From assembly GCF_026571515.1 (NCBI RefSeq), contig NW_026862321.1:1-64000 (forward strand): a stretch of 64,000 nt of DNA. The letters run 5' to 3'. The translations under genes and the position numbers were made by a program. This DNA comes from Ruditapes philippinarum. Taxonomy: Eukaryota. Below are positions 5,826-63,690 of the stretch, piece by piece (position 1 is the stretch's first letter; every line of letters starts with the position of its first letter). Under the pieces are notes generated by a model that had not been told where the DNA came from, did no database searches, and saw only the letters and a list, made by a program, of their open reading frames with translations.

Positions 5826-6400
5826 TGATAATATACAAATATGGACTTTTTAGCTGTTGAATATTATGTGATATGTACTGGAAAAATTAATATTGACCGA
5901 GGCGATAGCCGAGGTCAATATTAATTTTTCAGTACATATCACATCATATTCAACAGCTAAAAAGTATATATCTGTTTTATTATATGATCTATAAATAGCT
6001 TTTATATTGCTTATCACATCTGCCATTGCATACGACGGAAATCATTGTTTTTCAGCTTGTCTACTGTTCCATAATTTGGCCCTTTCCATTGCATGCTAAT
6101 CCCTGTTTTTCTCTAAAATGAAAAGGGTAACTAAAATAGACGAAATTTGACTCTTATGTACACCCATCATAATAATAACAACAAACTTTTTGGCGTGACA
6201 TCACGTCAAAGTCTCGCGTCTTTTAGGGATTTCAGAAATCTATTTTTAGAAGAACAACCGGTGAATATACTCTGAAAATCTATTTTTAGAAAAAAAACAG
6301 TGAATATACTCTGATATTGACCTGTTATTTTTTTACAAAAAGTTGCTTGTTATCCAATCAGGGAAAGGCATTTCAAAGCTATTTATAGATTATATAATAA
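5826..6400. mobile_element. Non-autonomous element: ~160 bp terminal hairpin plus body bounded by ~23 bp inverted repeats (possibly Crypton-like)
   Basis: Hairpin 5826-5984 with core gacc-GA-ggc-gata-gcc-GA-ggtc. Body IR ttattatatgatctataaatagc (5977) / gctatttatagattatataataa (6378-6400). Internal ~38 bp tandem duplication at 6236-6315. Confidence 0.65.
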
Positions 6401-7101
6401 CGACTTATATCCTTTCAATACATTATTTATATACTCTATATAAATTATTAACTACATGTTGGATCGAATATTCAAATAAATCTTATATGTAATGTATTCA
6501 TATTTGACAGGTCAATAAACTCAGACTATAAAAGTATTTCGACCACGTGATTTGATATGTAAAACACAGAGTGTAATCTTTGATAAAGTATATATAATAT
6601 AAATATTTGACATTCAAAAAAAGTCTGTTTCGGTACAATTTTGATTGAAAATGACTGACAACCATGTTAAAATCAAATTATATTAACATACTGGACCCTA
6701 TGTCAACAGGTTGGCATTTTGTACATTCGATTTCTTAAAACATAAGCTTAATAATGCATTGTTAAATTTTATATCTATGAATTTACTAAATTGTGGTAGA
6801 CTTATACTTGATATATTGGGAGAAAAAAGAACTAAGTCATCAACTCCCAGCATTGAATTGCTATTTACATGGTTAGTTAATTGCTAGGTTAGACTGATTT
6901 ACCATATATACATACTATTAAAGAATGATAAATGATGTGTTTTAAAGTAGGCAAATATTCAATTACCAATTTTTATGGCCAAACACGATCACATATTTTC
7001 GGCCCTTTCCATAAGGACCTCGGACACAATTGAATATTATGTCAGAGGGACATTAAACTGGCTTATTGAATATTTGTCTACTTTAAAACACATCATCTAT
7101 C

Positions 7102-8030
7102 GAGTCACCGTACCTGTGCTCGACCAGTCCATTGCTCGACCAATACTTCTTAATTGAAAAAAACCCTCGGAGTTTGTGTGTGCTATTTATAGCTGACATT
7201 TAACATCTACACCACGTACAAGTTAGAACTTGACAATTTTGCAGACGATAATAAACAGTACAAAAATACATGTCTATAATAAAAGTTGCAGTAAAAAACT
7301 ATTAAAAGGACTGAAATAATGATAATTTAGGGCAAATTGGGAGAATGCTTTGTTAAATGTCCTTTGCTCTTATGTTTTTTTATTGAGTTTCATGGGAAAG
7401 ACCCCCACAAATAATCAAAACCCGGCTTCCCATACAAGGCAATGGCTATGAACATGTAAACAGATATGGCAGCTGTCCGGTTACAAATAGGGAACACACC
7501 ACTAAAAGGGCAGACCAACTGTATATTACATCAAGTGTCACACTTTACTATGTTTGCAGTGATAGAATATGAGAATAAGTAATCTCAAACTCCCCAGTAA
7601 AAAAGCAAAAAGGAAAAAAAAACCTCTTTAAATCACTCAATTTGTCAATGTCTAACATTTCCTTCCTATCATAGTTATCTCATATTTACATCCATACTCA
7701 CTAAAACATAAATGTTCCAAAATAGATTTGAAATAAAATTGTTAAACACAAAAAGTCATATCTGTTTTTTCAAAAATAAAAGTTCTGATAAAAATAAAAC
7801 AACCTGGTCGAGCACTGGTTACGTTGCTTGAAAAATATAGTGGTTTTAGGCCCTATGTACAACTCCTTGGTAAATGGTATCCTAATCTGTATCATTAAAA
7901 CGCTTTTGTTTATAATGAGTTTTGAAGGCTAAGCTTTGTAACAAAAATAAGTTTCCGAGCAATCTTTTTGTTTTGAAAGAGTTTTTATGTGATTTTGTGA
8001 AATACTGGTTGAGCACTGGTCCGGTGACTC
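7102..8030. mobile_element. Non-autonomous TIR DNA transposon (~930 bp)
   Basis: Left gagtcaccgtacctgtgctcgaccagt versus right actggttgagcactggtccggtgactc; extra internal copies of the tgctcgacca motif at ~7132 and ~7805. Confidence 0.7.
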
Positions 8031-9271
8031 TAACATATTTCATGTTTATCCTTCATTATCTGATATTTGACAGTTTTCATGCATAATATTAAATGTAAAA
8101 ATATGAAATGTTAAATAACTTTTTTCACGGCTAATTATTAAACTCAAGCCACCTGCATGTTTGAACTCAAGCTCACTAGACTTTGGTTTTTCAGCGTATA
8201 ACTCAGCTTTCAAATATAAATGAGTGGAAAATATCTAATCAAAACCGTTAATAACAGTGAACTATAATTATACATGTATAACATCATATAATATATATAA
8301 GTCACCAATAATTTGAAATAAAATAAAACAATAAATTGTCGTCTGCTATCACTTCCGTGACAAGATAACATATTGTAAAGACATTTTTTAAAACATTCGA
8401 AATATAGAATAAATACATTTCCAATAAATCAAAATCTTACCATTCTATCACTACTTCTAAAGAATTTGCATCAAAAGCAAAAACAAACAAAAACGAAAAG
8501 TGTTTTACAAAAATGTTCCATCTCTGGTGAATATACCCGGACAACTGAAACAAACATTATATATCTATAAATAGAAATTTATTACTTTTTGACAAGCATA
8601 GCCAACCAGGGGAGGAGCCAGGATTAAAGGTAAGACAGTGCATATTATCACGGGGGAGGAACGGTTACACGAAGGGTGGAGTAATTACAATAACAGTTGT
8701 CACGGAGTTTATGGAACTTTTCATATGTGATCTTCTTCGTTGCCATACCTTATTACCTAATTATAATGGAAAGTTGCAAATGTAATGCCCAGGCTTATAG
8801 ATTACACGATTTTCTAAATGTCACGGCCGGAGTTCTTGCGATAACTCTGAAAATGTCCTAGAGTTCTTATGATAACTTTTGTTACTGCCAGTATGTTTCA
8901 AGATTGTGCAATGTTACGGCACGTTTTAGTTATTTTATTTGTCAATAAGTGTGTAAATCATAATGAAGCGTAAAGTACGTAGAACGCTTATCATTTGCAC
9001 AAGCATTTGGTTATATAATGTTGGTTTTGGTTGAACTTCAGTTCAAGAGATAGGTTTTCTTATCTCCGTTTCTTTTTTTTCAATTTATAGAATTTTTTGC
9101 TAACACATGTTTTGTAGACTATAAAAAAGGCTAAATATAGAAGATTAACTTACAAGATAAAAATATGCTTTGAATTCAATACTGGCAGTTTAAGAGAACA
9201 TTAAGTTACAATATGTTATTGATCTGTCGAAACAAATTGCATGTAAATGGTTTGCAGCAAAATATGAAGTA

Positions 9272-9635: not shown

Positions 9636-9671
9636 AGCCCCCGTACCGGTAACAAATATGCTCCTTCAGCA

Positions 9672-9900: not shown

Positions 9901-10633
9901 GTGTTAACTCCATTAGGTCGATATGCTTTTTTAACATATTTTTCACAGATTTTCGATTGTTTTGTTTTAATTGCCCGGTCCCGTACAGTGACTGTTTTCG
10001 TGCACTGCAGATATTACATGAGAGTAATTGATAAAAAGCAAGAGTTATATATCACTTTAAGGTGAAAACTGCCTCAAATAAGAAAACAAAAGAAAAAGGC
10101 CGTGTGACCGGCGTGACTGTCTTAAAAACGACTCATTATACAGTTACCTTAGTAACGTAAAACCGGCGCGCGACAAAAAATTGGGTAAGTTCATTTATGT
10201 GATGCATCACAGTATCCTTTAAGCACTACACATAAACGTCAAAATTCAGGGAAACTGTGTTTACGTATTCCTGACGTCACTAGAAAATATGACGTCATTT
10301 GCCCTATTGTTACTTTTCCGTGTGGTCGTCAGAGAGTTGACGTTAAATTGGCATTAGGGTCTAGTATTTTTGTAATCTTTTTTTTAAACCAATAAAACTA
10401 TTAAATGGCGCCGTAACTCTTTATAAGTAGTGTTCATAATTTAGTTTGTTACACAACTGGTACTCTACTTTCCTATGATTATATTTTTCAACACATCAAA
10501 ATACAGCTGAAGGGATGGATGTTCAAAACACTTCATGATCTTCAAAATGCAGTGGTCTGAATCATTTGTACAATTCCAAGTGATCTTTACAGGGTTTAAC
10601 GCGCGCCATTGCAGCTGTGATTGTACCATAATT

Positions 10634-10898
10634 ATAGAGGATACTGAATGAGTGTAAGTTCAATACTGAATTTATTGCACGAGTTAAATAAAATTATATT
10701 ATGCGAGCCTCTGGCGAAAATAAAGACCGTTTAAAGTGAAATAAGTCATTTTTCATTGACGCGCCTATATTATATAAAGCGAACATTTAGCGCGTCTTTA
10801 TGTTTGTATAACGCTAATGACGTCACGTCAATATATATACACGGCCGTGCAATACCATATTTACGGAGTCGCAAAATCGGCACGGGTGTGTGATAAAA
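10634..10898. mobile_element. Truncated hairpin-type element (right hairpin arm deleted)
   Basis: Core atgc-GA-gcc-tct-ggc-GA at ~10701; the same left arm (ttcaatactgaa.ttattg...gagcctct) recurs at ~51974-52029. Confidence 0.45.
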
Positions 10899-10901
10899 TC
10901 T

Positions 10902-11571
10902 TTTAATACACTTGTTACTATATATAGTAACAAAATTGCCTATGATTTCAACTGATTATGAGTGTCACGTGACCTATTATAAGTTTGCGGCCCGGGGCCG
11001 AGAACTAGTTATCAGCCCGCAGAACATGTGCACGTGCACAAACTGAAACAATGACGTCACTTTTAACGTCATCAAACAGTTAACTGTAAAAGTGAAAGTA
11101 GGCTGTCAGCACGAATCGCTTTATTTTTATTATGAGACCTTAAGCGTATTAAGTACAAACACATTTTTGTTAGAATATCTACCTACTATTGAAATTTGAA
11201 GAAATAATACGACAAATTCATTCCGAAAAAAAAAGAAAATAAAACTTGCTTCTTGGTTCTACTGCTTTGAACACACAAACAGAAAACATCTCTGTACTGT
11301 ACAGAACAGTAGAAGAGTAGACAAGAATTTCAACGAAAGAACTTCAAAGTCTATTTGTTTTTAGTATGTTTTTGTTATTTTTTTGTTGTTGTTTTTAAAT
11401 GCTACTATTAGATCTACCAAGTGTATTAAAGACTTTAATACACGTCAGCGTAGGGCCGGAAGGTGATAATCGGCCCTGAATGAATAATGGCCCTCGGGCT
11501 AAAGCCCTCGGGTCCATTATTCATTTTGCGGGCCGATTATCACCTTCCGGCCCTCTCCTGCCGTGTATTAA
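10902..11571. mobile_element. Non-autonomous element: IR-bounded body plus 137 bp terminal hairpin (possibly Crypton-like)
   Basis: Body IR tttaatacacttg (10902) / caagtgtattaaa (11418-11430). Hairpin 11435-11571 begins ttaatacacg and ends cgtgtattaa; core ccc-TC-gggc-taaa-gccc-TC-ggg. Confidence 0.7.
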
Positions 11572-11716
11572 CCTCTTATTATTGCTTGTAAAGTGGCATT
11601 TCCTTTTTATGTCATAATTTGTTTTACTGTCAGAAGAGGAAAGATTGATGCAAAGTATCTACATGTGCACAAATATATTGGACAACCCTCGTATATTTTA
11701 GACAGTTTATATTTTA

Positions 11717-12800: not shown

Positions 12801-13546
12801 GTATTCCGTTTTGTCTCGTTACCGCCCAATGGGCGGGGTCCCCTCGTTACAGATATTCCTATTTTAACCGCAACATATGACATATATTATTAATATATTA
12901 TTCATCTGTTGACCTGTACTTATTTCGAAAATTGACAATTTAGCAATTCAACACATTGATTAGTTGGCGCACTGCATTACCAGTTTATATAACGTGCGAA
13001 ACTACTAATGTCTGATGTAAAATAAATAAATAATAAATACATTTGTAAATAACTAAATAAAGACAATTTATGGAACTTGTGTACACGTAAAATGAAACGT
13101 CACTCTCACATTAGACAAACAGTACTTGTCAAATATTGTTCATGTACATAAGACCTGATATATAAACGACTCAATCATCATCTATAATTGTATAATTTCA
13201 TATTTGGATATTGAAGGAAATATATACACCAGTATTGTCCTGCACTTTATTTACTTTCGTAAAGATCATTGGATAAACACAGGTATCTAACGAATATATT
13301 GCTTCACACGTCGGCGCAGTGTGGTGTGTTGGTAGATCTGAAGGTCTCTGGTTTTTTTCCATGATATGAAGTTTCTTTTCCCCCTTTTTTTAAGGCAGGT
13401 GTGTGTGTGGGGGGGTGATGGCTTTACTTGCAAAAATTAATTTGAAAGCGTTTTAGTACAAGTGGTTAAAAGATTCCTTTTAAGTTTTTTTTATTCACAA
13501 TTATATTTGTTTCATTTCATCATATCATTTTTACTCAAAATTAAAG

Positions 13547-14790
13547 CGCGTTACAGTTATTTGGTCAATTATGCCGATTGCCATCTAAATATCTTGCTAA
13601 ACAGATATTTGTTAATAGATTGATTAGATATGTGAGTATGGATAGACAGAAACATGGATTTATTCCAGACATATATAGATTACTGCAGAAGTATGATCTG
13701 TTGTACGTCATTTATACTTTTATTGATACCGGTGTGTTTCCATCTAAATTAAAATGGAAGAAGATTTTACAGATGAAGGTAATCAATGAATCAACAAAAG
13801 AGTTATTCTTAGAAACGTTAACGCCACAAGTGCCAGCATTAACATTTCTACTTCACCCTTACAAGATTTCCCCTCTGTGGGTTATTATTCGACAAAATCC
13901 GGGTCTAAAATGGGTTGCTGAAATACTTGCCAAGGCAGTTGGACACGGGATGTGTTATTCATATGTGCGTCGTTGTAGCATTTGCAATCTGCTTACAAAT
14001 GACATTACAGAACACCTTATGTGTTTTTGTCACAGGAAAGAGACTGAAAGACGTGCCTTCTGGAACGCTATTATATCAAATTTAGGTTTTGACCAATACA
14101 GCACATTTATTTGCCATAACTACAGATATCAATGTGAAATGTTTTTGCATATCGCATGTAAAATTATTGATAATGTACTTGTCAACTTTCATATTGCTAT
14201 CGCGCTTGCAAAACTTTTATCTTCACGTTAAAAAAAAATAAAAAGAAGCAGGCAATATAATCGCTTTATAGTATATGTAGTATTTTGCTCAGACATAAAC
14301 TGTATAGTTATTTTTTATTTACCTGCATCGTTTTTTTTTCTATGTTTTTTACTTGTTTAAATAATTAAGATCATTGATTTGTTGAGGAATAATGCTTATG
14401 ACATCCGTCTATTGATAGTCATTTATAAAGCATGTACACAAAGACGGTACCTTCACTTTCTCTTAAATTTTCGTTTTTCGATTAAGATTCAGTTATTGGT
14501 ACGGAACTAAGTAACTTTGTTTATTTTTGTCACTGAGGATGAATATAGCAATGTTCATTTTTAAAACGAATGATATAAATCATAGTCTTAACTTTCGCTT
14601 TCGTTTAAGACAACAATTTACACCCATAAGTCATACGTTTACAATTGTAAAAGAATTTCATATTATTGTATCCTTTATATTACAATGTTATGCATTTGTA
14701 TATAATTCTCTTCTGTTGTATGTACATATATATACTTTGTAAATATGTTACGCTCCCAATTTTGGGGGAAAATAAAATATAATATAGATA
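13547..14790 (+). mobile_element. 5'-truncated non-LTR retrotransposon (C-terminal part of ORF2 with CCHC zinc knuckle, plus 3' UTR)
   Basis: Open frame LQLFGQLCRLPSKYLAKQIF...GFIPDIYRLLQKYDL...G.FPSK..WKK...CSICNLLTNDITEHLMCFC to a stop at 14231. The 3' end has a short hairpin (ctcccaattttggggga), AATAAA and short AT-rich repeats. Confidence 0.8.
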
Positions 14791-14822
14791 AATCGTCGCC
14801 CCGTTATTGCGCGGAGTGAGAT

Positions 14823-22570: not shown

Positions 22571-22862
22571 TGCTGATAAATGACCACCTAGTGAGCATTA
22601 TTTTTAGGCCAAAATACAACATCAGTTTATAAGCCGATGGTTCAAGAAATTATTGATGATGCATAGGAGAGAGATGGCCATCACATCGCAAGTTGTGCTT
22701 AGGTAAGACAAAAATGTGGATAACAACAGACAAAGGGCATCGCGAAATCAAAAAAAAGTTTGCTTACCTTATTGTATGCAAGCTTATTAAACATGGCTGT
22801 ATGTACATGTACTGGTATATCAATCGGAAACAAATTTATAAGTAATAAAAACAAAGTTGCAC

Positions 22863-23039
22863 CTCTTTTTCTTGGGTCATCTGTAACTCAAGGTCAGATA
22901 ATTTTTTTCTAAGCTCGTCATATTCCTCTTTAGTTGCAGAATTTTCTGTTGATTTCAAAACTTTTGTCATTTCGTCTTTGATTTGCATCAGAACTTCTTC
23001 AAAGCCGTCAGTAGTAATTATGAAATCCTTCTTTTTCAG
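22863..23039 (-). CDS. Coding exon 3 (59 aa), helical/coiled-coil region
   Basis: tttttcatcag|LKKKDFIITTDGFEEVLMQIKDEMTKVLKSTENSATKEEYDELRKKLSDLELQMTQEKE|gtgcaa. 177 bp, phase 0-0, inside track ORF 22836..23090. Confidence 0.85.
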
Positions 23040-23510
23040 CTGATGAAAAATAACAATTGAGGTATAATTGCAGCTCTTTGATTCATGCAATTTACCCTTC
23101 GATAAAACATAATTTTTAAATATAAGGTCAGACTTTATTTCTGAATTACCACAATTGTTCTTTTTATATCTCGTTATTTTGTGAGGACTTTAAAATCCGC
23201 TTATATAACATGATGTGTAGTATAGATATCTAATAGTCAGACTATACTTCTTACTTCACTTTTTATCTTAATCATAACTCACAGTGAAGGATACGTTGTT
23301 TTTGAGTATATTAACTTTTTATGGGCATGTATATTTTATTTCATTAATTAAATTTATTTAAAGCATTCGTTATTTAAATTTGACTATAATGAAATCATTT
23401 TTAACACTTTGTCAACTACCAAAAGTATGTCTTGATTTAAAGATTTCTAAGCATAACAAAACTTTTTCAGAATTTCAAACTAATAAATGTAATTCATTAT
23501 TTAGGCTTAC

Positions 23511-23669
23511 ATCTTGTAGTTTCCTGACAGCTCGTTGAGCAGCCTGATGGTGTATAAGTTCCTTTCCATCTTGAAGAACTGATAGCATATCATCAATATA
23601 GGAATTTGCTTCCATTTCCTCTAATTCCATACTACTTGAGTGAAAAACGCAATTTCTATACTGTCGTAC
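23511..23669 (-). CDS. Coding exon 2 (53 aa) carrying the HEPN-type RxxxxH motif RNCVFH
   Basis: Manual translation: ttccattcaatag|VRQYRNCVFHSSSMELEEMEANSYIDDMLSVLQDGKELIHHQAAQRAVRKLQD|gtaagc. 159 bp, phase 0-0, in frame with exon 1; matches the recalled CXorf38 segment V.K.RNEIMHSSEM. Not in the ORF track. Confidence 0.9.
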
Positions 23670-24384
23670 CTATTGAATGGAAAACAAAACTAAGTCAAAC
23701 ATACATACTTATACTGTGTTCAGCAATGAAACCAAACAAGACTCTTCAGTTAAGCATTAAAACTGTTAAGCGAGATACGCAATTGCATCTTCTCGGTCCT
23801 TTCCGTTTAACTTCGGATAAGATCCTCGAGCACAAAAGTAAGAATGGACAGAACGGATACGGTGAACAGAATTTATCCAGAAGTTAAACCCGCCTGGTGC
23901 ACAAAGTGACATGCTGATCAACATTTCTGTAAAGTTTGGTGACTCTAACTCAAACACTATAACAGCTATTTGTGACACAAAATGGTAAGGACCCCCACCT
24001 CAAGAATGACGGCATACGAATATAACCGTACCAAACACTTGCAATGGTCCAGCAAACAAAGTGAAGTTTAATGTTGGCTTAAACAATTTACATCGAATCA
24101 CAATAAAATGTGTTGCATAACAAGTTTTTAATCATTTTTATTGTGGCAGATTGTTTATCTCGCCATTTGGCCTCATAGCAATATGGACATAACACCAACT
24201 TATTGCAGTAATGAGTTAAGTCCATTTTAAATTCAATACAAGAGTATATAGCTTTACTGTAAGGTTTAGTATATATTCAGCATCAAAATGAAAGTTTTTA
24301 TTGTCATCTGAGTGCAGTATCGGTTTAATTCGTATAATAATTTCACAAATTGTAATTAAACACAGAGTAAACAAAAAGATTAAC

Positions 24385-24954
24385 CTTTGCGAAAAGATTG
24401 TTTGGTCCTGTTACATTGCATCCAATATGATTATGAAAATATTTGTTATTTATGATAACATGTAGTAACCCCGAGCAGTCAACGTCGACTGCTGATGTCT
24501 TGTCCTTGTACCCAGGAGCATTTATAAAACATTTACATATGCTCCAAGGATCATTTGTCCAATCACGGGCATCGCTGTTTCTCCAAAAAGGTGCCGGTGG
24601 TATTGATGCATGATTCTGTACAATGCTATCATAGATTGCGCCACATACGTTGTTTGGGCAGGGTTTCTTATTATTTGGAAAGCAACAGTTACATTTATCT
24701 TGCTTGTATGGACACACTCCTTTTGAGACTCGGACATGGTCTGGCTGGAGAGTTGTTATCTGACAGATGCCACATGGTACATTTGGTTTAGGAGTCTTTG
24801 TTCCTATAATTTGGTTGATAATATCTTTGTGCTGCTGTTTTCCTATGTCATCACAAAATGGTGCTAGTCCTTCTTTTAGATAACCTAAGCCTAGGCCCGC
24901 CTTGACCCATTGTCGGTATTTGTTGTTCTTTAATTGTATCTCGTGCGCCATCAT
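24385..24954 (-). CDS. Coding exon 1 (190 aa) of a CXorf38/DUF4559-like, HEPN-motif protein
   Basis: ORF MMAHEIQLKNNKYRQWVKAGLGLGYLKEGLAPFCD...FWRNSDARDWTNDPWSICKCFINAPGYKDKTSAVDVDCSGLLHVIINNKYF parallels CXorf38-family motifs as I recall them (Y.NWVKAG, W.N....W..D.WEVAK.F, D...LL..I.). Acceptor ttttcattctag lies just upstream of the ATG (exon starts 24959); phase-0 donor GCA AAG|gttaat at 24385. Confidence 0.9.
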
Positions 24955-25670
24955 GATATCTAGAATGAAAATTTTTAGCTACAAGGAAAATCAATTTAAA
25001 CTACGACTGAAAATAAACAGTTCTATGCCCAAAGTTTATCTGAGTTAATGGACCGTGACCTTTGACTAACAATGAAGACATGGTCACTATCACAAGCTGG
25101 TCATATTGGCCCTAGATCCCTCCCTGAGATTAATAGTTAGAAATGGGCATCATTTCTAAATACAGAATTAAATAACTAGATCACAATGAGACATGTCTGA
25201 CAGTGCTTCAGACAAGATGCGTACCTTTCCAAAATAAATATAGATCATAAACAGCTTTTCAATTATTTGAATAAAACATTCATTTTATTATCACTTTCAT
25301 TGCATGCTTACGCAAACCCAACGGGAAATTTTTGGTTTAAACCTTGCGAATTTGCACCAAAATCAATTAGATAATTTCTATATCTCCGCAGGTGCTGTCT
25401 GTTTGGTAATACATTTCAACGGTGTCTGGTAAAAAGTTGATACAGAGGTATTATCATAATTAACCCTGACAGTTTATTGAACGAAAATTTTACACAGAGC
25501 GGATGTCTAAAATTAAGTTCATCTATTCGCCACAAAACAAACTTTAAGTTATGTTGCAAAAATGATCAACAACGGGAATAACTCTATCTATTTGACTTGA
25601 TTGGTATGGATTTGATGAACGATAAAGTTCCCTTGGTTAGAAGAATTTTTAGACTTGGTACGAATTCAAT

Positions 25671-38324: not shown

Positions 38325-38419
38325 AGAAAGAACATCAAAACACTCGACATTCTGATTGATACACGGGGGCTACGCCCCCTCGTACAAATTAGATAGATTC
38401 GTGTTTTGATGCTCTTTCT
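38325..38419. repeat. Hairpin with GC-rich mismatch core
   Basis: agaaagaacatcaaaacac ... gtgttttgatgctctttct; core tac-AC-gggggc-tac-gccccc-TC-gta. Confidence 0.7.
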
Positions 38420-38562
38420 ATTACGTAAATGTTAGCGTTACACTCGTATCGAGAAATCGTTACCTTTTAAAAATCCTATCTCGCGAAATACAAAATCCAC
38501 ATAAAGATACTCTTTTAATAAACCGATTTAATAACAGCAAAGAAATTCTAGAATTTGATGTA

Positions 38563-42340: not shown

Positions 42341-42702
42341 AAGTACGTGCACATTTCCTAATTCTCGTTAACATATGGTTAAAACCACTTAAGTTTTAGT
42401 TGTTATTTACCTACATTATAATCAAAAGCATCTTTCTATAACTTGAAAAAAATCAAATGTACTAAAATCGCTTTTCAACTGAACAAATAAAATTACATCT
42501 GCAAATTACCAGTGATTCAAATTCAAATAAAACAACACAAGACACATTTAAACAATAAACAAGTACGAACAATATCAAGACTCTTTTTATTTGAAAATTT
42601 CCTTTATTCTGAGAATGGCAGTTTGTTCAACAATTTTAAAGCCGATTACACGTGACGTTTTTTTTCTTACTTGAAATGTCCGGTGTATAATGAACACGAA
42701 GA

Positions 42703-43075
42703 TGACATGTGTGTTTTTTTATTTATCTAGTTCGCACGAGAATAATCCGATTGATTAATTATCTCGTGCGCACAACTTAGTAACTCGTGATCACGACATA
42801 GATAGAATATCCTGCGCACCACTTAATAATCTCGTTCCCACGACTTAGTAACTCGTGGCATAATAATTTGTTCGCACAACTCAGTAACTCGTGGCTACAA
42901 CATAGAATCTCGTAAGCACCACTGAATTATCTCGTTCCCTCGACTTAGTAACTCGTGGCCACGACATAGTATCTGGTGTGCACCGCTTAATTATCTCGTG
43001 CGAACGACTTAGTAACCCGTGGCCACGAGCAGAGTATTTCGTTTACACGAGATAAATAAAAACGCACAAATGTCA
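42703..43075. mobile_element. TIR element with internal ~20 bp ctcgtg..cacga tandem array
   Basis: TIR tgacatgtgtgtttt..atttatct / agataaataaaaacgcacaaatgtca. Confidence 0.8.
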
Positions 43076-43459
43076 CCTTTGTTACACCATACTTTAGTTA
43101 CAAAACGGGATTGGAAATATATAATATACCTAATTCATAGCATTAGTCTCATGTGATAAATTTCAGATAATTCGCTAACTTTTTAAAAAAATGCGTCCTA
43201 GTTTACGTGATACCTTCCTTATAATATTTATAAGACGCAGTTAATACTTTCAGATATATCATCCTGGACATACAATAGCAAAAGAGGAATACTTAGAAAA
43301 TATCTTAATACAGGAAAGAAATACAAGTGTGAAACGTGACTTTACACACATATATTATTGTTTAAATAAGCAAACCCGAGTTTCAGATTCATGGTGAAGA
43401 AATAAGGCGTCGGTTTAAAAAAAACGGAAAAAGAGAAGATATGTCGACTGATAATCATC

Positions 43460-45370: not shown

Positions 45371-47176
45371 ATCTTTATAACTACCTCCTAAATACTGTAA
45401 TATTTGTCAAAAAGTAGCAAAATGTAAAGAAAGTGTTTTTTTATTATCGTACAAAATTACTGGTAATAGTTTTTAATATGCATATAAAGAAAAAGATATT
45501 TAAACTAAAACCAATGTGTAAAAGAGCACACACATTTTAACAGCTGGCATTTTTGCGGCTTAATGGGTCTTTAAAGACCAAAAGTAAAACTGATCTGAGT
45601 GTTCTGTGTCGAGATTCACATACACAGAAATGTCATTGTAATATTACAAAATACTGGATATATATTAATAAGAGAGTCAGAAATGAAACAGGATAGCGTT
45701 TTAGAAACACTTTTAACCTGGACAAAGCCACTTTAGGGAACTTTAGGGAAAATTTCAGAATAAAAAGTGACTAAGAAGCTGATGTGCCATGTGATTCAAA
45801 TGTCGCCAGCAAGTTAAATGTAACAAAAGTACATAGACAAAAAACTACAAGAAACAACCAGATACAAATTATTCAAATCGTGTCCATGACAATTCTTACC
45901 TAACGATCTTCATACGTATGTAAAAGCTGTCAACAAGGAACATTGTCTGTCACCAAGGAACATTGTCTGTTATCAAGGAACATTGTAAAGATTTATAGTA
46001 TCCCATTTACGATAATGATTACACCTGTCGACAAATCAATGTTTTCATAATTATGTTATTAGAGCCGTGCTATGACATTTCCAACATAGTGGTCGAATTT
46101 GACAATTTACCTTTTTCAAATTGCAATCTTTTCTTGATCATTCAAGACAAATATAATATTTTTGACAATTAACAACATAGCTTACATATTTATTAATAAT
46201 CATTTTACACAAACTTTGATCAAGAGTGCCGTATCAAATTACAGCTTTCGGATACAATACATGTACAATCATAACACAACCTGTCCATAATAACCCACTG
46301 TGTACTACAACTACAAAATGATTAATAAAAAAAACACGAAGGGCGCGATTTATTGACGGAAAAGATTATTTCATTTGAATATGATTGCATTGCGAAATTG
46401 TCCAGTTCGCTATTCATTGTACATTCTTTTTTATAGTAATTAAGTGGATTGTAAGAGCCATTTGCAATGTGTAAATGACTTCCTATGTTCACTTCCTATT
46501 ATTTACGTTTAAATGCATTTTCCAAATTGTTATGACAATAAGTATGGATCGTGAGGCATGCTGCTTTAACGATATCATAACACTATGTTTAACGATGGTA
46601 TTTCAAGGAAATTATGATATTGCTTTTTCTGATGTAATTTTAAGAATAACTTTGATTGCTTTCTCTTGATATACAAAGGTTTGACGGGATTATTCACCAC
46701 ATAACGGCAATTTTACTATTACAGAAAATAGCCCATTTAGTCAGAAACACTCATTTAATACTCATGATTTATATTATGTATTATTAGCATATTTCAGCTA
46801 GTTAAGATCTCCTAAATTTATATAAAGCAGGACGGGATTTTAACAACTACAAGTGTCTGACGCGCACATCCACTTCACAAAACAATCGTTTAATGATTCT
46901 CTTAAATTATATATTTAACAATGATATCAACGTGCTGCGATACCTTTTTTATTCTATTTACATTATATTGTTTATTTCAATTTTTATATACTAGTCGCGA
47001 CAATTGATAAAGGGAAAAACTTAAAAAACATCTTGAATCTGGTTTAATTGAATTGTTAAACTGTTTTCAGTAAGTTAGCCCTGTTACAAGGTCAATATCA
47101 AAAGTCGTTTGAATAGATAAAATTTGTTTTGTCTACTCAGAATTGTCCTTATAGCACTACTTATAATGTATTAAGT

Positions 47177-47400
47177 GATCTCGTGCGCACGACTTAGTAA
47201 CTTGTGCTCCCGACTTAATTATCTCTTGCGCCTACATAGTAACTCGTGCTCACGACAAAGTAACTCATGCGCACGACTTAATTATCTCTTGCTCACGACA
47301 TAGTAGTTCGTGCGCATGACATATTATCTCGTTTGCACGACTTAATAACTCGTGCGCACGACATTGAATCTCGTGCGCGAGATCAATTAAAACACGCACA
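47177..47400. mobile_element. Partial copy of the tcgtgcgcacga-array element
   Basis: About 10 units, ending gagatcaattaaaacacgcaca, similar to the 43050 terminus. Confidence 0.75.
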
Positions 47401-50491: not shown

Positions 50492-52029
50492 GCTTTCATT
50501 AATGCATACAAAAGTTTAATAACATAACCTTCAGAAGACATCTAACTTGTGAAGGGAGAAAACTGGTATAAAAATATGACACTGGGAAAAGCAAGACTTG
50601 TCTCCCTTCCAATAAACTGCATTAATGAAATATTTTATATATATTATTATACTATAATACAAGAGAAAAAAGATATATTTTCATGCTCATTAATCTTGAA
50701 ATATGAACCGATCCTCAGACCAGGCGTTGTTTCTCTCTTAATATTAGTTGTCTCCTCATTGATGATTCAGAAATTTCATGAAATTAGAAGTCGGTACTTA
50801 CGTAGAAATTGGAAATTACAGGAAAGCGTGTTAAAGCATATTTAACTATTGTAAAACCGTACTATGAAACTATGATATATCTCCATTAATCATCGATTAA
50901 ACATGAACAAGTAAAGTCAGTAAAACATAAATAATAAAAAAACAACAGAAAGACTTAAATAAAAGTTAAAATTATACGGACCACACCCATTTATACTGAT
51001 AGAAGTAAAGACCCGGATGCTGGATACAAGGATTAAAGAATATGACAAAAATGGAGTAATGATTCAAGAAACTAAAATAAAAATAACAAATATGTTTCTA
51101 TTTATACATTATTATGAAATGGCTGCTATTTATCGAGCAAAAAAAAAAAAAAAAAAAAATAAGAAGGGAAAAAATGATAACACACCAATTTTTACAGCTA
51201 GATTTATAAGGCCTTGATTAGCTCAGCTTTAGGATGCAACCCTTTTTCTACAATCCATGCCTGTATTTTGAAAATTATTTATTGGTATTGTTGTATTAAT
51301 ATACCGTGAAGCTGTTTGAAATAAACTATATTTATTATAAACTAAATTAATATAAAACCTTTAATAAATACACTTTCTTAAAAAAATACACTATATATCA
51401 ATATATTTAAGTGTGCGTTCAATGATAAGAACTGAACGCCTTATTGTTTGAACATATCTTAAAGATATACTATGCTCATCTTTTAGTAAAAGAATTTAAT
51501 CACAGAATTTTTTTGAAATCTATAAAATTCTCACTGAATGTGTTTAATTTAAATAAATGAATCAATAAACTATGTATGAGAAGCGTCATTCAGAATATCG
51601 GGTCAAGTAAAGTTGGTCTTTTCTTTAAAAAACTGCCAGTTTTTTTAATGACACTATATATTTATATTGTTACCACCAATAGATTTTAGAGTTGTAAACA
51701 TAAAATATCTATATTGTATGAAGTCGAAACCTGTTAATTTTATGTTTACAAAGAGACTGTGTAGCAATTATCAATATTTTTGAATATCAAATTTGAGCAT
51801 AGTATATCTTTGTGTTTAACAAACAAACAAACAAACAAATGAAAACCTTAGAAACAAACTTATTAACTTCATTGCACTGGGCGGATACATACATCTGGAG
51901 CGTGGTGAAAACCATTACTTGCGCATTATCATTCGGACATTTTGACTTCTTTGTGACAGATATAGGTTATAGGTTCAATACTGAAATTATTGATCAAGTT
52001 GAATGAATTAATATATTATACGAGCCTCT

Positions 52030-53232
52030 AACACTTGACTGAAAAATCATTCATACTGAAGTCAAACTGACTTATCATCCATACCGACGCAGGACTGACT
52101 AATAATTCATGCAGACGCAGGACTGACTAATAATTCAAGAACTCATATAACTGACTTTTCATTCATACTGACGCTGGACTAAATAATCATTCATACAAAC
52201 GATGGACTGAATAATCATTCATACCGACGCATAACTGGCTAATTATTTATACCGACAGAGGACGGTATAAATATCCATACTGACGCAAGACTGTATATTC
52301 GTTCGTACTGAAGCAGGACGGTCTAATTATTTCATTCTAACACTAGACTGACTAATTATTCAAAACCGACGCAGGACTGAACAAATCGTTGATATTGGCG
52401 GTTGATTCACTTATCATTCATACTAACGCCAGACTGACAAATCATTCATACTGACGCATGACCTGAATAAATCATTCATAATAACAATGGACATAATAAA
52501 TCATTCATATTAACGATGGACAGAAACATGTATTCATACCGAGGCTATTGACTGACTAATACATTTTATACTGACGCCTGACTGAAATTTTAATCAATTC
52601 ATATTAACGATGAAACAGAATATTTATTCATACCGAGGACTAGACTGGGACTAATCATTCATAACTAACGATATAAACTGAAATAATCGTTTATACTTTG
52701 GCGCTGGACTGACAAAAATAATTCATACTGACAAAGGAACGGAATAATAATCTATACTTGAAGCTAAAGACTGACTAATCGTTCGTACTGTCTGAAGCAA
52801 GAGACTTGACAACTGTACAGAATAATCATTCATACTGACACTGGACGGAATAATCATTCATACTGACACTGTACAGAATAATCATTCATACTGACACTTG
52901 AATGAATAATCATTCATACTGACACTGGACGGAATAATCATTCATACTGACACTTGACTGAATAATCATTCATACTGACGCATAACTGAAAAATCATGGA
53001 TACTGGTGCTTGACAGACTAATCTTTCATACTAACGTAGGACTGACTAATAATACTGGCTTATCATACTGACGTTGTACTTTTCAATCATTCATACTGAC
53101 ACAGAACTGATTCATACTGGTGCTGGTTCTATACTGTTATTGTACTAACTATTTTTACACTGGACGATATACTGACGCTTGTCTAATATAAAATTTATAC
53201 AATTCTCTGTTCTGACGCTGAACTGACCAATC
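52030..53232. repeat. ~26 bp minisatellite (ataatcattcatactgacgc.ggactga), ~1.2 kb
   Basis: Contiguous degenerate units; most homogeneous at 52820-52980. Confidence 0.95.
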
Positions 53233-54356: not shown

Positions 54357-56515
54357 GTATCACGCCCGTTTAACTCACAACGAGTGAAAAATGTCCGTCG
54401 GTAAAAATGTTGTGAGCAACTTTCCGTTCCTCGTTCCAGCACCAATCTTTGACGTGTGACAACGATAAACAAGGTGGAGTTTTTCTATTTAATTTTTTTG
54501 AGATTACAGACATTTATGTAAAAATATCGAAATGCAAGTTACTAGCAATTGTTTTCCGAGTTATGCACCATGTAAAGTGGATATTGCCTGTTGGTTTGGA
54601 CAATTTGATTTGGAAAGTACCGTGCGACGCAGTCATCACTCTGAGTAGCTGAAAACTGGAGACCAACTTCTCTTTAGACCTAATTTAACATTGAAAACGT
54701 CGATTCTGGTGACGTTTTGTGCATTCTAACCGAAAACAGATGCCCACAAGTCTTTAGCGTAAATTATTATCTGAAAGTCTTCATAGAAACGAAGATATAC
54801 ACTTTTTTGCTTTAATCCTCGTTGTGAGCATCATAACCTCGTTGTGAGCAAATCAATCGCAGTGCGTGTATGGTTTTAATATGTAATTTTTAGATGGTGA
54901 AAATATAATAGCAATTAAAACGTTTTTGCACAGCAGCATTTCTTTGCAAGACGTTTGTGCATACCCAAAAGGAGGCATATTAGTTTTGAACTGTCCGTCT
55001 GTCAGTCCATCAATCTGTCCGAAAACTTTAACATTGGCCACAACTTCCTTATTAGTAAAACGGGATTTTGATCATATTTGAACACAACATCCCTTAGTAC
55101 CTTCCTACGGACCTGTATTTTTTTACCTTGACCCCTGAATGACCTTTTACCTTGAAGGTCAAATTGTCCAAAAACATTTAAGAATTGGCCATAATGTCCT
55201 GGCATAATGTTTAGGCACAACACATTTTTTGACAGGGCCTTTCAACTATCCTATAATTCTTTTGACCTTGACCCCTGAATGACCCTGACCTTGAAGGCAA
55301 ATTGTCCAAAAAATTAAAAATTGGTCATAACTTCCTTATTAGTATACAGATTCATACTCATATTTGAAACATCACCACTTTAGGCAAGACCTTCAAACTG
55401 ATCTGTACTTTTTTACCCTGTTACCGTGAATGACCTTCTAGAACATCCAAAAACTTTAACATTGGTCATAACTTCTTTATAAGTAAGTGGAATTAATTCA
55501 TATTTGGACACAATGCCCCTTTTGACAAGACCTTCCAGCTGACCTATATTTATTTCTCCTTGTCCTTGAATTACCTTCACCCTTGAAGATCTAATTGTCC
55601 AAAAACAAATAATCTATCTGGTCTATAAATTAAAAGACAAAGCACCACTTCAGGGGCATTGTCAACTTACCGTGATAGTCTTGTTTTACATAACTTGGTC
55701 AGTCTTCAGCTCAGGATAAACACATGTATGTGTGTTTCACACAGATTGTGAAATTGTTGAAAAATATTCATAAACATCCCGTGATGTTCACTCGTGCCAC
55801 ACTAGAGTAAATACGCAAATAAAATACATGATTTACCTCAAATGATTAGTTCTTTCTTGTTAATCTGATGACTTGTGAATATGAAGAATAATTTTCAAAA
55901 AAGAAAAAGAAAACTATTGCAAAGAAAAACTATTGTACAAAAACGTTTTGATTGCTTTTTGGTAGATTGAAAATTGTATTCTTGCCATTTGAATTACATA
56001 TTAAAACCAGACAAGCACTGCGCTTGTCTTGCTCACAACGAGGTTATGGTGCTCACAACGAGGATTAAAGCAAAAAAAAGAGTATATCTTCGTTTCTACG
56101 AAGACTTTCAGATAATAATTTACGCTGAAGACTTGTGGGCATATGTTTTCGGTTAGAATGCACAAAAACGTCACCAGAATCGACGTTTTTCAATTTTAAA
56201 TTAGGTCCAAAGAGAAGTTGTCTCCAGTTTTCCAGCTACTCCGAGTGGACTGCGTCGCACGGTATTTCCATCAAATTGTCCACCAACAGGCAATATCTTT
56301 ACATGTGCATACTCGGAAAACACATCGCTAGCTAACTGCATTCCGATATTTTTACATAAATGTCTGTAATCTTCAAAAAATTATGAAAAACTCACCTTGT
56401 TTATCGTGTCACTCGTCTATAGATTGGTGCTGACAACGAGGAACGGAAGTTGCTCACAACATTTTTACCGATGGACATTTTTCACTCGTTGTGAGTTAAA
56501 CGGGCGTGTGTATAC
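54357..56515. mobile_element. Foldback-type element with ~590 bp inverted arms (54357-54950 / 55915-56515)
   Basis: cacgcccgtttaactcacaacgagtgaaaaatgtcc... is the reverse complement of ...ggacatttttcactcgttgtgagttaaacgggcgtg; similarity continues across both arms. Confidence 0.9.
54952..55686. mobile_element. Nested modular element (GTCC/GTCA microsatellite + ~145 bp tandem units), HINE/Pearl-like
   Basis: ctgtccgtctgtcagtcc at ~54991; aaactttaacattgg.cataac units at 55023/55171/55309/55450; ends ggggcatt...tcttgtt. Confidence 0.75.
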
Positions 56516-57362
56516 CCTCTGCGCTTGAATGAATCCACGCTGGTTTTGGAAACGTACTTCGCCGCAAGCCATATCGATATTGAGGAAATAGTACATAATG
56601 AATCCTTCCGCAGCCATAAAGTAGTTCTTGTTTCCGTTTCACAGTATTTCGATGCAATGTCTCTGTCGGAAATGAAAAAAAAAATGTTTTGACGGCGTTG
56701 TGCATCTGCGAGAAATTGAAAGTTTAACTTTTGATTATTTTAATGATACTTGATTTCATTTATTCTGGAAAACTTAACATTTCTACGGAGAACACGGATT
56801 TACTGCACGAGTTGACTCTGTTTCAAATCAAAGTTCTGTATAAAAACGCGAAGCATTTCTGATTGTTCATTTTGCCAATGAAAACTGTAATAGTCCGTTG
56901 AGAGTGTCGGAAACGCATGAGTGTCAAAACTGGCCAAGAAATCTTGATATGTGATCCTTGAAAACTTTACAGATGTATGTCAAACTGAAGACATTAAAGG
57001 GAGACACAGGCAAAATTATCATTTCTTCGTTTTGAATGTTTCATTCATTATTCTGTAAATACATGTGTCCTCAAAATGAATACACTAGGCAGCCACAGGA
57101 ACAACACTTTACTTCGTATAAAAAATAAAATGGTAGTTTCCCAACTCGACCCACCTGGATTTCACAATAGTTGTCACAGTGAACTCTGTAAATTAAACTT
57201 TAAAGAACATGTCAAATTAATGACTTAGGCTTATTTTAATCATACAATATCCGTAAGATCTGTTATTGTAACTTCAAGGGTTTGTTCAAGTCACATGACT
57301 TGTTTTAAAACTACTCGATGGTTCTGTCGGCGTCTAAGTTTCTTTTAACATATACGGATATA

Positions 57363-57604
57363 TTTGAGCCGCGTCATGACAAAACCAACATAGTGCGTTT
57401 GCAACCAGCATGGATCAAGACCAGCCTGCGCATCCGTGCAGTCTGATCAGGATCCATGCTGTTCTCTATCAGTTTCTCTACTTGTCATAGGGCTTGTAAG
57501 CGAACAGCATGGCTCCTGATCAGACTGCGCGGATGCGCAGGTTGGTCTGGATCCATGCTGGTCGCAAACGCACTATGTTGGTTTTGTGGTGACGCGGCTC
57601 ATTT
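57363..57604. mobile_element. Near-perfect palindromic MITE (~240 bp)
   Basis: tgagccgcgtca..acaaaaccaacatagtgcgtttgc.accagcatggatc... is mirrored by ...gatccatgctggtcgcaaacgcactatgttggttttgt..tgacgcggctca; fragment at ~46062-46093. Confidence 0.92.
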
Positions 57605-59769
57605 ATGCTCCAAACCCAAATTATATAAAATTTAAACAGAAACTCATATTGGGACTAAAATATGTCATTTTCGCGTGGTTTGAGATATGATCATTTTTTA
57701 TATGTTGTCATTCATTTGCCATCAAATCGCTAAATGCGTTGTTCATGGAGAAAATGTTTGAAATAATAAACGACGACACAAGTTACAAATATAGAAATTG
57801 TCGGCGATTCTGTTTCCCGGGAGTATCGATTTAGAATAAATTATAAAAAGAGCAGATAACTCTTACAAACATACTGGCACATTCAATAGATACAACGCAA
57901 GAACGATAAGTATATCACAAATATATGACGTGTTTTAAACTATACATAATACACGTAGATGTTCAATTCCTCTTTCTTTAATTACAGTTTACAGCTGCAT
58001 GCCTACTGGCCGCTTATTTGCATGCATGTTTCGAACAATTTTTTGTTTTGTATTTGGTTTTAAAAGATTTCATGTCCCGTTTGCATTTTTGTTGACATGA
58101 TAGTAATTTAAATGTTAAACCATTTTAAAAATTTACACGAAAATTATAATAAAATGAATCTGGAGGCATGCTGTTTTGTATAATTATGTAAATCTCCGAG
58201 AAAGTAAACGAAGACATGGAAAAATCGTGCACTTTTTCACAGAAAAATGTTCTATTACTTTCAGGGGTCTAATACCGATTCGTCATAAAAAGTTTCTTAG
58301 ATATGACAAAGAACAAGTAGATAAAAAAACACACAGTTTTAGATACTAATTCATGTTTCGCCTTATTAACTTAATCAGTTGATAAATTACAAAGGAAATG
58401 TTTTAAATGTCACACAGATGTCTACGTTAATAGACGCCACATTCGATGAGTAAAAGAAACGTTAAAGTAATATATTAATAAATAAAACGTCTATTACTGT
58501 TTTATACAATAAACTCGTGCATGTGTATATATAGACGTTATTATCATATACAAAAGAATTACATGAAATAACTGGGTCAAAAGTTACATACATTTTCAAA
58601 GGGAAACTATTCTAGTCAATATATTCAACAAGTATGAAAATAACAGTTCCTTATGTCAAAGTTTAAAATTTTAATCAAATTTTGAAATCGGATTTGTTTA
58701 AAATTGAACATCAGTGATTTAAATTACAAATTGTTGTCAGACATATTTTCAAGCATAAGAGTACCGGAACAGACATTAGCTGTCAAATATATACATTTGT
58801 TTTACATTATCTCTGTTTCTGTTTACATCTGAAACCGCGTGGTAGAACTACTTTCAATCCGTATTGTTTCCGAGGATATTATAGATAATAGTCGAGGCAG
58901 TTCCGAATGACCATAGCTTCTACAAAACAACAGGTAATTTGGTGTATTCTTCAGTTTTGAACGGATTTTACGTGCTTGAAAAGTATTGATATTCATTCGA
59001 AGTCTTTACATTGCGAATAAAAATTTTACATAATGTTTTCAAAAATGGCTAACTCAATTGATAGAATACGAGATAGTTCGTTAATAGTCAATGGCCGCAT
59101 TTTGCCAGCAGTGATTGTAAAGGTGAGAATTCATATCTAAATATGATTATTACAAGGATAAAGACTTTATTAAAAGACATATTGTCACCAAATACAACAG
59201 ATGAAATACAAATAGGCGACCGATTTAACGTGTCATATTGTTGCCCTGCTTTCGCCATGAAAATCCGAAAAAAGCGAAAACTCGGAGAGACGACAAAGTC
59301 AACTTTTTCGTCCATCCTTTTTCGTATTTTGGAGGCAAAGAAGCGATAACACAACACTGTGTAAATCAGCCAGCGTAACTATCAGTATCCTATCAGTAGC
59401 AGACGATAGGTCAGTGTCGTAGTTCTCTTGCATGTTTATTCAGTAAAATTACCCCTTTTTACTGGCAAAGTCATCTCTAGAATTACAGGGATTATCTCAA
59501 TGGTGCCAGCTATGGGGAATGTTTGCAAACTGATGACAGAGCTATAGAAACCAGGTCATCTAGGGATTCAGTTATAAATATTTGTATTAATGTTCTCAAG
59601 AGCTTTCTTTCTGGGAAAATCAGTTCAAGGAAACACCTGTGAAGTATCACTTTACTCACAATGGATCAGATTTTGTTACATTTTAGACGCAAGTATTGTG
59701 ACATGTTTTCTTTTGCTTAACCTATCTCTATAGGTACTTTCATAATTCAGCCATTTCTACTTTTATATC

Positions 59770-62204: not shown

Positions 62205-62806
62205 ACAAAAAGAGCGATCAGTGATCACATGTGTCGCCTCATGATAGCTAATTTCATGTTGGGACAAATTTTGTGACAGACGGACAGACAGACGGATAGT
62301 GCACAACTAGACATGGTACTGATCATTCCTGTAAAGTTTTGATAAAATTGCACCAGTAGTTTATGAGGAGTATTCCGGACAAGCTTTTGTGTATCTGGCA
62401 ACACACAGAAAAACACCTTTTTATCAAAGGGCCATAACTCGGCCAAAAAACATTCAACCGAAAAACCCGTGCAATATGCGCAAGGACTTGAGCTACAGAT
62501 CAATCCTGTAAAGTTTCACTGAAATTGCATTAGTGGTATAAGAGAAGTAGTCCGGACAAACTTTAAAAATAAAAATTATTAAAGGGCCATAACTCTAACA
62601 AAAATCATTGAACCGAAAAATGCTGACAATATGCACAACTAGACTTGGTACTAATCATTCCTGTAAAGTTTGGATGAAATTGTACCAGTAGTTTATGAGG
62701 AGTAGACCGGACAAGTTTTGTGACGGACGGACAGACGAACAGACAGACAGACGGCGGAGAAGTGATCCCTATATGTCGCCACTACTCCGTAGAGGCGACA
62801 CAAAAA
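62205..62806. mobile_element. Modular element (~155-175 bp tandem units + GACG/GACA microsatellite), HINE/Pearl-like
   Basis: gcacaactagac.tggtact.atcattcctgtaaagttt units; gacggacggacagac tract; terminal tgtcgcc...ggcgaca IR then aaaaa. Confidence 0.8.
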
Positions 62807-63572
62807 GGAAAACCAGTTAAAGTAACAAAACGTACATTGCTGAACTGAAAGCCAACACTTTTGAGCAAATTGAATAGATAAAGAGACTATACCAAAACAA
62901 AATGTCTTAGGTTTAAGCCTTTACCTTAAGAGGACAATATCCTAAAAGATGTTCCCTTTAAGCCGATACAAATGAAAATATAAATAAATACCGACTGCAA
63001 TGCATGATTTGAACAAAATGCTACAAACAAAATATGAAGGTTTTTAAGCCTTGCTCTTCTGTGATCGTAACTTTTTCAAAATAACAATTTTATAATTCTT
63101 TGCTTAGGCAGACAGAGCACATAATGAATGCACTTTATTGAAAAACTATGCATATATATTAACCAAAAGTAAGCGATAAGTGCTTCAGCTGTTTTACGTC
63201 TTACATACATGTATCAGTTACTTACATTATAAATAAGTGTTATTCTTGTTTCAAAACAAAACAAGACAAAAAATATGAAAATAGTCATTTTGCAACTTTA
63301 TGTTATTAATAATACCATTCCAAACAACAGCATATCAAATAGTGTATTAATTAAAAAATATATATAAACTAATAAAAAGACAAATCACATAAACGAAGGC
63401 ACAAGATTGTAATTTACAGTACTATACTGCAACAGTAACAGTCTATATAACCAGGCTGAATCAAATCATTACGTCACATGGTTATGCTACATGATGACGT
63501 CACATAGTGAGCGGCAATGAAAAATACATGAAGACGGGGAAAAGTTAAAAAATCTGAAAACATGATTGAACA

Positions 63573-63690
63573 TAGTTGACGGGATGGAGAAGTTTTATCC
63601 AGTTCGCCGAGAAAGTAAATCTTGGCTCGTAAGCTCACCAAGATAAACTTTCTCGATCACCGGATAAACTTTCTCCATTCCAACTCTCTA
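63573..63690. repeat. Long hairpin with TC/TC (GA/GA on minus strand) mismatch core
   Basis: atggagaagttttatcc...gagaaagtaaatcttgg-c-TC-gtaagc-TC-a-ccaagataaactttctc...ggataaactttctccat. Confidence 0.75.

Follow-up and report, generated by a model that had tools for sequence, protein, structure and literature searches.

CryptonA transposons and their non-autonomous derivatives have been described in animals (PMC3212892), including Eulor5/6 and the salmon Crypton-N elements (PMC5753468). In the available portions of PMC3212892, animal Cryptons are reported without terminal repeats, all eight CryptonA rows of supplement 1 bearing the entry "n.d.", and the repeats of their fungal relatives are characterised as variable or poorly conserved in the part of PMC13465315 used here. 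Excerpts of two further papers state that active Cryptons excise cleanly, yet their copies increase (PMC9977147), and that the mechanism of Crypton transposition lacks experimental demonstration (PMC13565253). Against this background, we analysed a stretch of 64,000 nucleotides of the clam Ruditapes philippinarum (assembly GCF_026571515.1, contig NW_026862321.1, positions 1 to 64,000; hereafter the window), an animal DNA rich in repeats, with 32% GC. An earlier interpretation made without database searches (the sequence-only reading) had pointed out in this window five long hairpins sharing, on one strand, a tandem GA/GA mismatch near the tip. We report that these five hairpins are one end each of unrelated, multi-copy and gene-less elements (E1 to E5) that likely belong to the Crypton group. 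A non-autonomous CryptonA-type identity is very probable for E1 and probable for E2-E5.

The copies of the elements were taken from the contigs of four public runs bearing the same species label as the window. In addition, 110 metagenome loci (L numbers) were collected with the E1 tip as the query, 106 of them from Ga0224510/11, two from Ga0307984 and one each from two other records. All loci mentioned below as L141, L156, L158, L163, L166, L189, L207 and L215 belong to this set, in which the constancy of the tip is a consequence of the query and has no evidential value. The elements occur in many contigs with distinct flanks, i.e., they are interspersed and multi-copy, and they have no coding capacity.

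The five hairpins are all present at the positions where they had been reported. The terminal hairpin of E1 (5834-5980, + strand) has a near-perfect stem, about 70 bp long and folding as DNA at −57 kcal/mol, with covarying arms, and a tip (5897-5914) where GA at 5899-5900 faces GA at 5911-5912 around a GGC/GCC stem and a GATA loop. The tip of E3 (11491-11512, GA on the − strand) similarly crowns a near-perfect 70-bp stem (−64 kcal/mol). In E4 (tip at 38360-38384, − strand) the GA faces GT, and a second GA/GA lies lower in the stem (38340-38349 with 38397-38404). E5 (tip at 63624-63639, − strand) carries GA/GA over a 1-bp inner stem, together with a second GA/GA lower down (63601-63609 with 63655-63663). 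The window copy of E5 is decayed, because other E5 copies (loose letters before 63631, X1 and X2; 63637 A>G) have a GC stem of 2 bp topped by a TTTA loop. As for E2, its tip is present (10703-10717) and its right arm is absent after 10717, in agreement with the truncation previously noticed. This arm was found in the loose letters beyond 10717 in 4/4 runs (99-138 contigs per run), and it supplies a second CGAG/CGAG loop lower in the restored stem. A broken sixth tip, of the E2 family, lies at about 52021-52030.

The arms are indeed unrelated between the hairpins, as had been claimed, no blastn comparison among the five elements giving an E value below 0.07. What is kept across the families is a unit of CGAG facing CGAG, on the strand where the hairpin begins the element, with an inner stem of 2-6 bp, a loop of 3-4 nt and a CGAG-CGAG spacing of 10-17 nt. 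Since this spacing is variable and the stems change with their pairing held, a structure is a better fit than a binding site in duplex DNA. Additional CGAG/CGAG loops are present at differing depths in E2, E4, E5, L158 and L166, and the GA/GA loops within one element are all on the same strand. When the GA strand is read 5' to 3', the hairpin comes first in 4/4 elements with mapped ends; in the metagenome family (n = 110) the polarity was normal in 94 cases, flipped in three and undetermined in 13. The three flipped loci (L156, L163 and L207) carry the tip in reverse orientation with respect to the body, at crossover points that differ between them, and may reflect a real spacer inversion or an assembly error. 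The E1-type element of L215 contains a further hairpin (431-494), with the same arm sequence and a single A.A mismatch replacing the GA/GA.

The enrichment of GA/GA was assessed on about 460 kb in all (window plus metagenome flanks), i.e., on small numbers and not genome-wide. The expectation that GA/GA exceeds other mismatches held for long hairpins and failed for short ones. Among 1000 short hairpins with a 2 × 2 mismatch, collected by a crude search of the window, 13 had GA/GA or TC/TC where the composition predicts 1.2%, so that GA/GA is not enriched in short hairpins. As to long hairpins, 101 were found in the window and flanks, of which eight remained after the removal of 89 members of the searched E1 family and four arrays; E4 and E5 fall below the long-hairpin detector and thus outside this count. 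CGAG/CGAG occupied three of the five clean 2 × 2 loops of the eight remaining hairpins (E3, L158 and L166; P ~2e-5), and two of the three clean loops of the metagenome flanks alone, a DNA outside the window (P ~4e-4). Ten Markov-generated 64-kb controls contained no long hairpin. A chance origin of the hairpins was rejected. An assembly artefact was rejected too, the family being present in the four runs and in other animals.

In the arms of E1-type elements (six sequences, two of them from one family), both sides had changed in 33 of 64 pairs (50 cells), with a one-sided (wobble) change in just three. This level of covariation was reached by 0/500 shuffles and by no slid control. Simple descent from one family without covariation, which the sequence-only reading had named as the outcome that would speak against it, is not what we found: the elements are unrelated by blastn and these pairs covary. 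We also considered that the palindromes might be kept by arm-to-arm copying, with the GA/GA as a neutral relic of one ancient Crypton ancestor playing no present role. Template switching yields two-sided changes without selection, and the three flipped tips show that such events happen. However, copying should erase the mismatch, which stays while both flanking stems change, and it does not account for the extra CGAG/CGAG loops seen at differing depths in E2, E4, E5, L158 and L166. We therefore regard this explanation as very improbable.

In E1, E3 and E4, a segment able to pair with the far end follows directly on the second arm of the hairpin. A single strand folded in this way would thus hold both ends on one splint. 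E1 (5829-6399, + strand) is a complete element of 571 bp, bounded by TAATA cores at 5829-5833 and 6395-6399; it is multi-copy and has a homologous metagenome family. Its internal complementary segment (5949-6012, + strand) is the reverse complement of the joined far and near ends (0/500 shuffles as good), and its far end (6365-6400, + strand), with a CCAAT-like word directly upstream, pairs with 5977-6012. In E3 (about 10900-11579, − strand; hairpin at 11429-11577) the two paired stretches are 11400-11439 (internal segment) and 10893-10932 (far end). In E4 (about 38050-38424, − strand; hairpin at 38317-38427), an older element, the far end at about 38051-38064 matches the complementary segment. 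When the far end alone was compared with the internal segment, shuffles did as well in 0/500 cases for E1, 6/500 for E3 and 22/500 for E4. In the metagenome family, 5/5 copies tested have joined ends that match their internal segment in reverse complement (each 0/500 shuffles). A one-base bulge at the core is common to the window E1 and these five copies, the fifth of which is devoid of the lower mismatch. The far ends of L158 and L166 were not significant (71 and 56 of 300 shuffles, respectively).

The cores at the two ends behave differently. In the E1-homologous family the right core is TAATA in 15/15 copies, whereas the left core (n = 91) is TATTA in 57, TAATA in 14, CATTA in nine and others in 11; the window E1 has TAATA at both ends. 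The ends of the E1 homologues are imperfect 5-bp direct repeats, with both cores identical in one of 11 full copies. Judging from the sequences, this fits a tyrosine-recombinase insertion with no target duplication, in which one core would be element-derived and the other target-derived. A fixed-core/variable-core pattern is described for CryptonF and CryptonS in the sections of PMC9977147 and PMC13565253 drawn upon. Furthermore, the joined ends of E3 form 9-bp inverted repeat arms separated by a 6-bp spacer, a layout close to the recombinase-site plan of 11-13 bp arms and 6-8 bp spacer presented in the available portions of PMC3212892. Two other identities were rejected: a DDE-type MITE (miniature inverted-repeat transposable element), as the ends pair with an internal segment and the flanking 5-mers are identical in just 1/11 copies, and Helitron1, whose TC...CTRR ends, as given in the excerpt of PMC3627910, are not matched here.

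The same ends could belong to non-autonomous Cryptons moving as double-stranded circles, the hairpin being a cruciform or a protein landing site and the GA/GA either tuning extrusion or standing for direct-repeat binding words. This would agree with the standing model, as set out in the parts of PMC3212892 and PMC13565253 at hand, with the predicted Cre-like fold of the enzyme described below and with the joined ends of E3, which are loxP-like (9-bp arms, 6-bp spacer) without any folding. It leaves unexplained, however, the presence inside the element of a complement of the joined ends, including a conserved bulge, the one-strand polarity of GA/GA, the variable CGAG spacing and the core mismatch tolerated in 10/11 insertions; we consider it unlikely.

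No enzyme gene is present in the window, as previously stated: Pfam applied to 144 frames returned no recombinase, HUH or transposase, and a CryptonA profile also gave no match. The link to an enzyme was provided by L141, which bears the E1 tip at 5-32 and an arm 97% like that of L189. On the opposite strand of L141, a frame with one stop (858-556) points toward the hairpin and matches the protein P0003 (E 6e-27). P0003 matches P0008 (E 4e-26), a protein of 434 amino acids with DUF3504 (E 9e-11) and Phage_integrase (E 6e-7) domains and 271 relatives, the few named ones being from corals, molluscs and one hydrozoan. With a profile made from 120 such proteins and run against the window and the 110 loci, L141 was the sole match (E 2e-20; next best 0.34). 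The catalytic R-K-H-R-H-Y residues are kept in 31/31 full-length rows, and the structural model of the recombinase (pLDDT 78) has Cre as its closest fold; QRICH1 ranked fifth and the integron integrase 46th. Because L141 combines the E1 tip, a broken DUF3504 frame and a candidate far end (1189-1211) carrying a TAATA core, it is probably an internally deleted CryptonA. Together, the DUF3504/phage-integrase gene of L141 and the fixed/variable core pattern support the guess of the sequence-only reading that the elements are non-autonomous, Crypton-like and dependent on a tyrosine recombinase. CCAAT-like words occur just inside the far ends of E1 (6350-6358), of the metagenome family and of L141 (about 1000-1180, upstream of the recombinase start), and possibly represent a retained promoter.

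Other searches for the enzyme or the tip were negative. The pieces of L141 alone had no informative Pfam match and no word-index homologue, and the Atlas provided leads only (Phage_int_SAM in 10% and 51% of members, QRICH1 in 60%). Among the 128 flank frames, the 60 longest were compared with Pfam and contained no DUF3504 or HUH type, the L141 relic being too short for this cut. DUF3504 was found in 0/5 bacterial genomes, and CryptonA-encoding loci in none of the viral contigs. The tip search in viral contigs yielded 12 loci, none with long arms and most in coding-like GC-rich DNA, and a search with the E3-type pattern yielded none; in prokaryote genomes it yielded 121 loci, again none with long arms. 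Forty-six of these 121 loci (L014-L132, e.g. L019:6001-6024) are an intergenic multi-copy repeat, nearly all from Rhodobacter, Gemmobacter and Paracoccaceae. This repeat opens with a near-identical CGAG/CGAG tip, has no long arms, continues with further GC-rich hairpins and is REP- or MITE-like.

The finding of a recombinase relic bears on the suggestion that an HUH enzyme of the IS200 or REP kind reads the hairpins, for which we obtained no support. We also considered rolling-circle (HUH) elements of the Helentron/Helitron2 or Replitron type, with hairpins read on single-stranded DNA. Helitron2 and HINE elements do have a 5' hairpin, asymmetric inverted repeats and T-rich insertion sites, according to the available text of PMC4067079 and PMC3627910. 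Here, by contrast, the far inverted repeat extends to the terminus in E1, E3, E4 and 13 copies of the metagenome set and is not followed by a hairpin, both ends pair with adjacent parts of the internal segment, the ends are a 5-bp TAWTA core rather than T strings or CTRR, and the single enzyme relic accompanying the tip is a DUF3504 recombinase. RepHel was found neither in the 144 window frames nor in the 60 longest of the 128 flank frames, a RepHel profile not having been run on all of them. This origin is very improbable indeed.

The structure might also act as RNA, in the form of a structured non-coding transcript or a SINE-like unit. Tandem GA pairs are common and stable in RNA, and the same fold is obtained under RNA rules. 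Nevertheless, G-T/G-U wobble changes are rare (3/64 pairs), there is no Rfam match, the ends resemble recombination products and the GA strand of L141 is antisense to the recombinase gene, which makes RNA the least probable of the explanations considered.

We modestly favour the reading that these are non-autonomous CryptonA-type elements, in which one strand folds both ends onto an internal splint for a Cre-like recombinase. In this proposal, the two ends would lie side by side, where a recombinase provided in trans would cut them and join them. A GA strand that becomes single-stranded for a short time, as may happen in replication, would begin to fold from its sheared G.A pairs and short GC stem, the other strand presenting a TC/TC bubble at the same place. 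The stem would then zip down to the complementary segment, which would pair with both ends and thereby rebuild a double-stranded site with a bulged core. The joining of the ends by the recombinase would release a single-stranded circle, the donor surviving via the other strand, and the copy number would go up. The folded circle would recombine with a TAWTA-like double-stranded target through one strand exchange resolved by replication. The outcome would be one target-derived and one element-derived core, and a loose 5-bp core would suffice for integration. In duplex DNA, the near-tip mismatch would moreover restrain the extrusion of a cruciform, at a small cost to the GA strand. We infer that the tip is a folding nucleus located about 65 bp from the recombination site, not the site itself. 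The stacking of tandem GA depends on a Py-GA-Pu context. Tandem GA-AG steps in DNA stack far more strongly than canonical steps, as reported in the excerpted part of PMC8163305. As to the separate claim that the elements would move as a folded single strand, we lean slightly in its favour. The more detailed version that we call CryptonA peel-and-paste (Cre-fold recombinase, CGAG/CGAG-chosen strand, single-stranded circle, one strand exchange), which could also be the origin of the internal complementary region of DIRS elements, is offered tentatively.

Several observations weigh against the folded-strand proposal. First, the end-complementary segment was not found in E2 (deleted here, 36/500 shuffles), E5, L158 and L166. 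Second, the enzyme link is one contig, from another animal, which bears the E1 tip only and whose far end is weakly placed (61/1000 shuffles); E2-E5 are tied to Cryptons by design alone. The window itself has no recombinase relic, and no parent element was seen from this genome. Third, the two-sided changes of the palindromes can also arise through arm-to-arm copying. Fourth, the folding program gives near-equal energies for the two strands of the E1 hairpin (−57.2 vs −57.3), and the energies of the circles per strand are −98.2/−99.2 for E1, −119.4/−113.6 for E3 and −50.1/−50.7 for E4; in the absence of a consistent difference, the strand asymmetry rests on published sheared-pair data. Fifth, an E2 end-to-start joint observed in run X9 reads as a tandem insertion and is no proof of a circle. 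Finally, the recombinase is predicted to be nearer in fold to Cre than to the integron integrase, and the published model, as given in the accessible part of PMC13565253, is a double-stranded circle.

The remaining elements deserve a brief description. E2 (10633-10897, + strand) is of very high copy number, and its right arm and complementary segment are deleted in this copy. Its limits were derived from loose ends at 10633/10634 and 10897, each supported by 125-212 contigs in those runs for which it was listed; further loose ends lie at 10717. E2 abuts the far end of E3, and a joint from 10632 to 11579, from which both are absent together, was found in 4/4 runs (one contig each); it may come from another copy of a host repeat. 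An E2-family far end (37943-38049, − strand) lies beside E4, which appears to have been inserted into the E2-family copy that this far end terminates, and an E2-family fragment (51965-52030, + strand) comprises half of a tip interrupted by a 28-bp array. The E5 hairpin (63573-63690, − strand) belongs to a low-copy old family, and its far end was not found (shuffle test, 293/300). In L166 (about 2500-3050), an E1-type copy is followed, directly after its far end, by a second GA/GA family. Such elements thus insert at or into one another, as observed at 10633-11579 and 37943-38424 in the window and in L166.

Other repeats and genes were noted in the window. A 108-bp inverted repeat (91%) at 57360-57606, with nested palindromes inside and related pieces in L157, has no GA/GA loop and is probably a different MITE; hence the long hairpins of this region are not all members of the set. 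Another multi-copy structure (6927-7101), with 54-bp inverted arms and a branched centre of 67 nt, has no clean GA/GA loop. An array of 21-bp units with inverted halves and terminal inverted repeats occurs in three copies (33635-34055, 42696-43082 and 47151-47386). The genes comprise exons of a DUF4559 gene at 22839-24978 (− strand; one exon at 24346-24978) and a BTB-domain exon at 56495-56689 (+ strand). An open frame of 228 amino acids (13545-14228, + strand) resembles the tail of a LINE (long interspersed nuclear element) and has no Pfam match.

The anatomy described here matters because, in the portions of the literature cited above, Crypton transposition is unshown, animal Cryptons are described without terminal repeats and the active ones both excise and multiply. 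It supplies the precise ends of the elements, their 5-bp core, a splint segment and a marker for the strand, i.e., a defined substrate for a first reconstitution, and its structural signature could assign abundant unclassified invertebrate repeats. If the single-strand route is true, folded-strand tyrosine recombination is not limited to bacteria, and structure-encoded recombination similar to that of integrons and the CTX phage operates in animal genomes; a recombinase that is compact and whose site is defined by structure could then serve as a tool.

In comparison with known systems, the elements resemble CryptonA and its non-autonomous derivatives in that they are short (0.3-0.9 kb), gene-less and devoid of target site duplication, with a DUF3504/phage-integrase recombinase in one relative (L141). 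They resemble CryptonF and CryptonS in their short terminal direct cores, one of which comes from the target in the sections of PMC9977147 and PMC13565253 concerned. They differ in their hairpins, GA/GA loops and internal end-complementary segment, which go unmentioned in the available portions of the CryptonA papers (PMC3212892, PMC5753468). Our searches of the literature on Cryptons, bivalve repeats and Eulor elements likewise brought up no description of the hairpin design; the families may be catalogued in Repbase or Dfam, with their palindromes recorded.

The Helentron/HINE and Helitron2 elements are also similar, being non-autonomous with a terminal hairpin, asymmetric inverted repeats and AT-rich targets, and their far subterminal inverted repeat is placed 20-60 bp from the end and followed by a stem-loop in the text seen of PMC4067079 and PMC3627910; their target is TT, with T strings at both ends. 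By contrast, the elements of the clam have no hairpin after the far repeat and no T-string ends, their hairpin is much longer and the relic is a recombinase, not a RepHel. With regard to bacteria, integron integrases, as well as XerC/D acting on the CTX phage, recombine a folded single strand through one exchange and replication, according to the excerpt of PMC4792948 (see also PMC3442271, PMC3053210 and PMC5027507). The likeness that we propose with these attC and CTX sites would comprise a folded-strand site, a strand choice made by unpaired features and one exchange resolved by replication. They differ in being bacterial; here, the enzyme is Cre-like in its predicted fold, not IntI-like, and what is conserved is a sheared GA/GA mismatch close to the tip, a long way from the cut site. 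The internal segment finds a parallel in the DIRS elements, which are tyrosine-recombinase elements and carry an internal region that can pair with the beginning of one terminus and the last part of the other, as described in the available part of PMC6681497. DIRS elements, however, possess a reverse transcriptase and an RNA stage, whereas no reverse transcriptase was seen here and the only relic is of the DUF3504 type; moreover, it is the lower arm of the terminal hairpin itself that forms the complementary segment in the elements described here.

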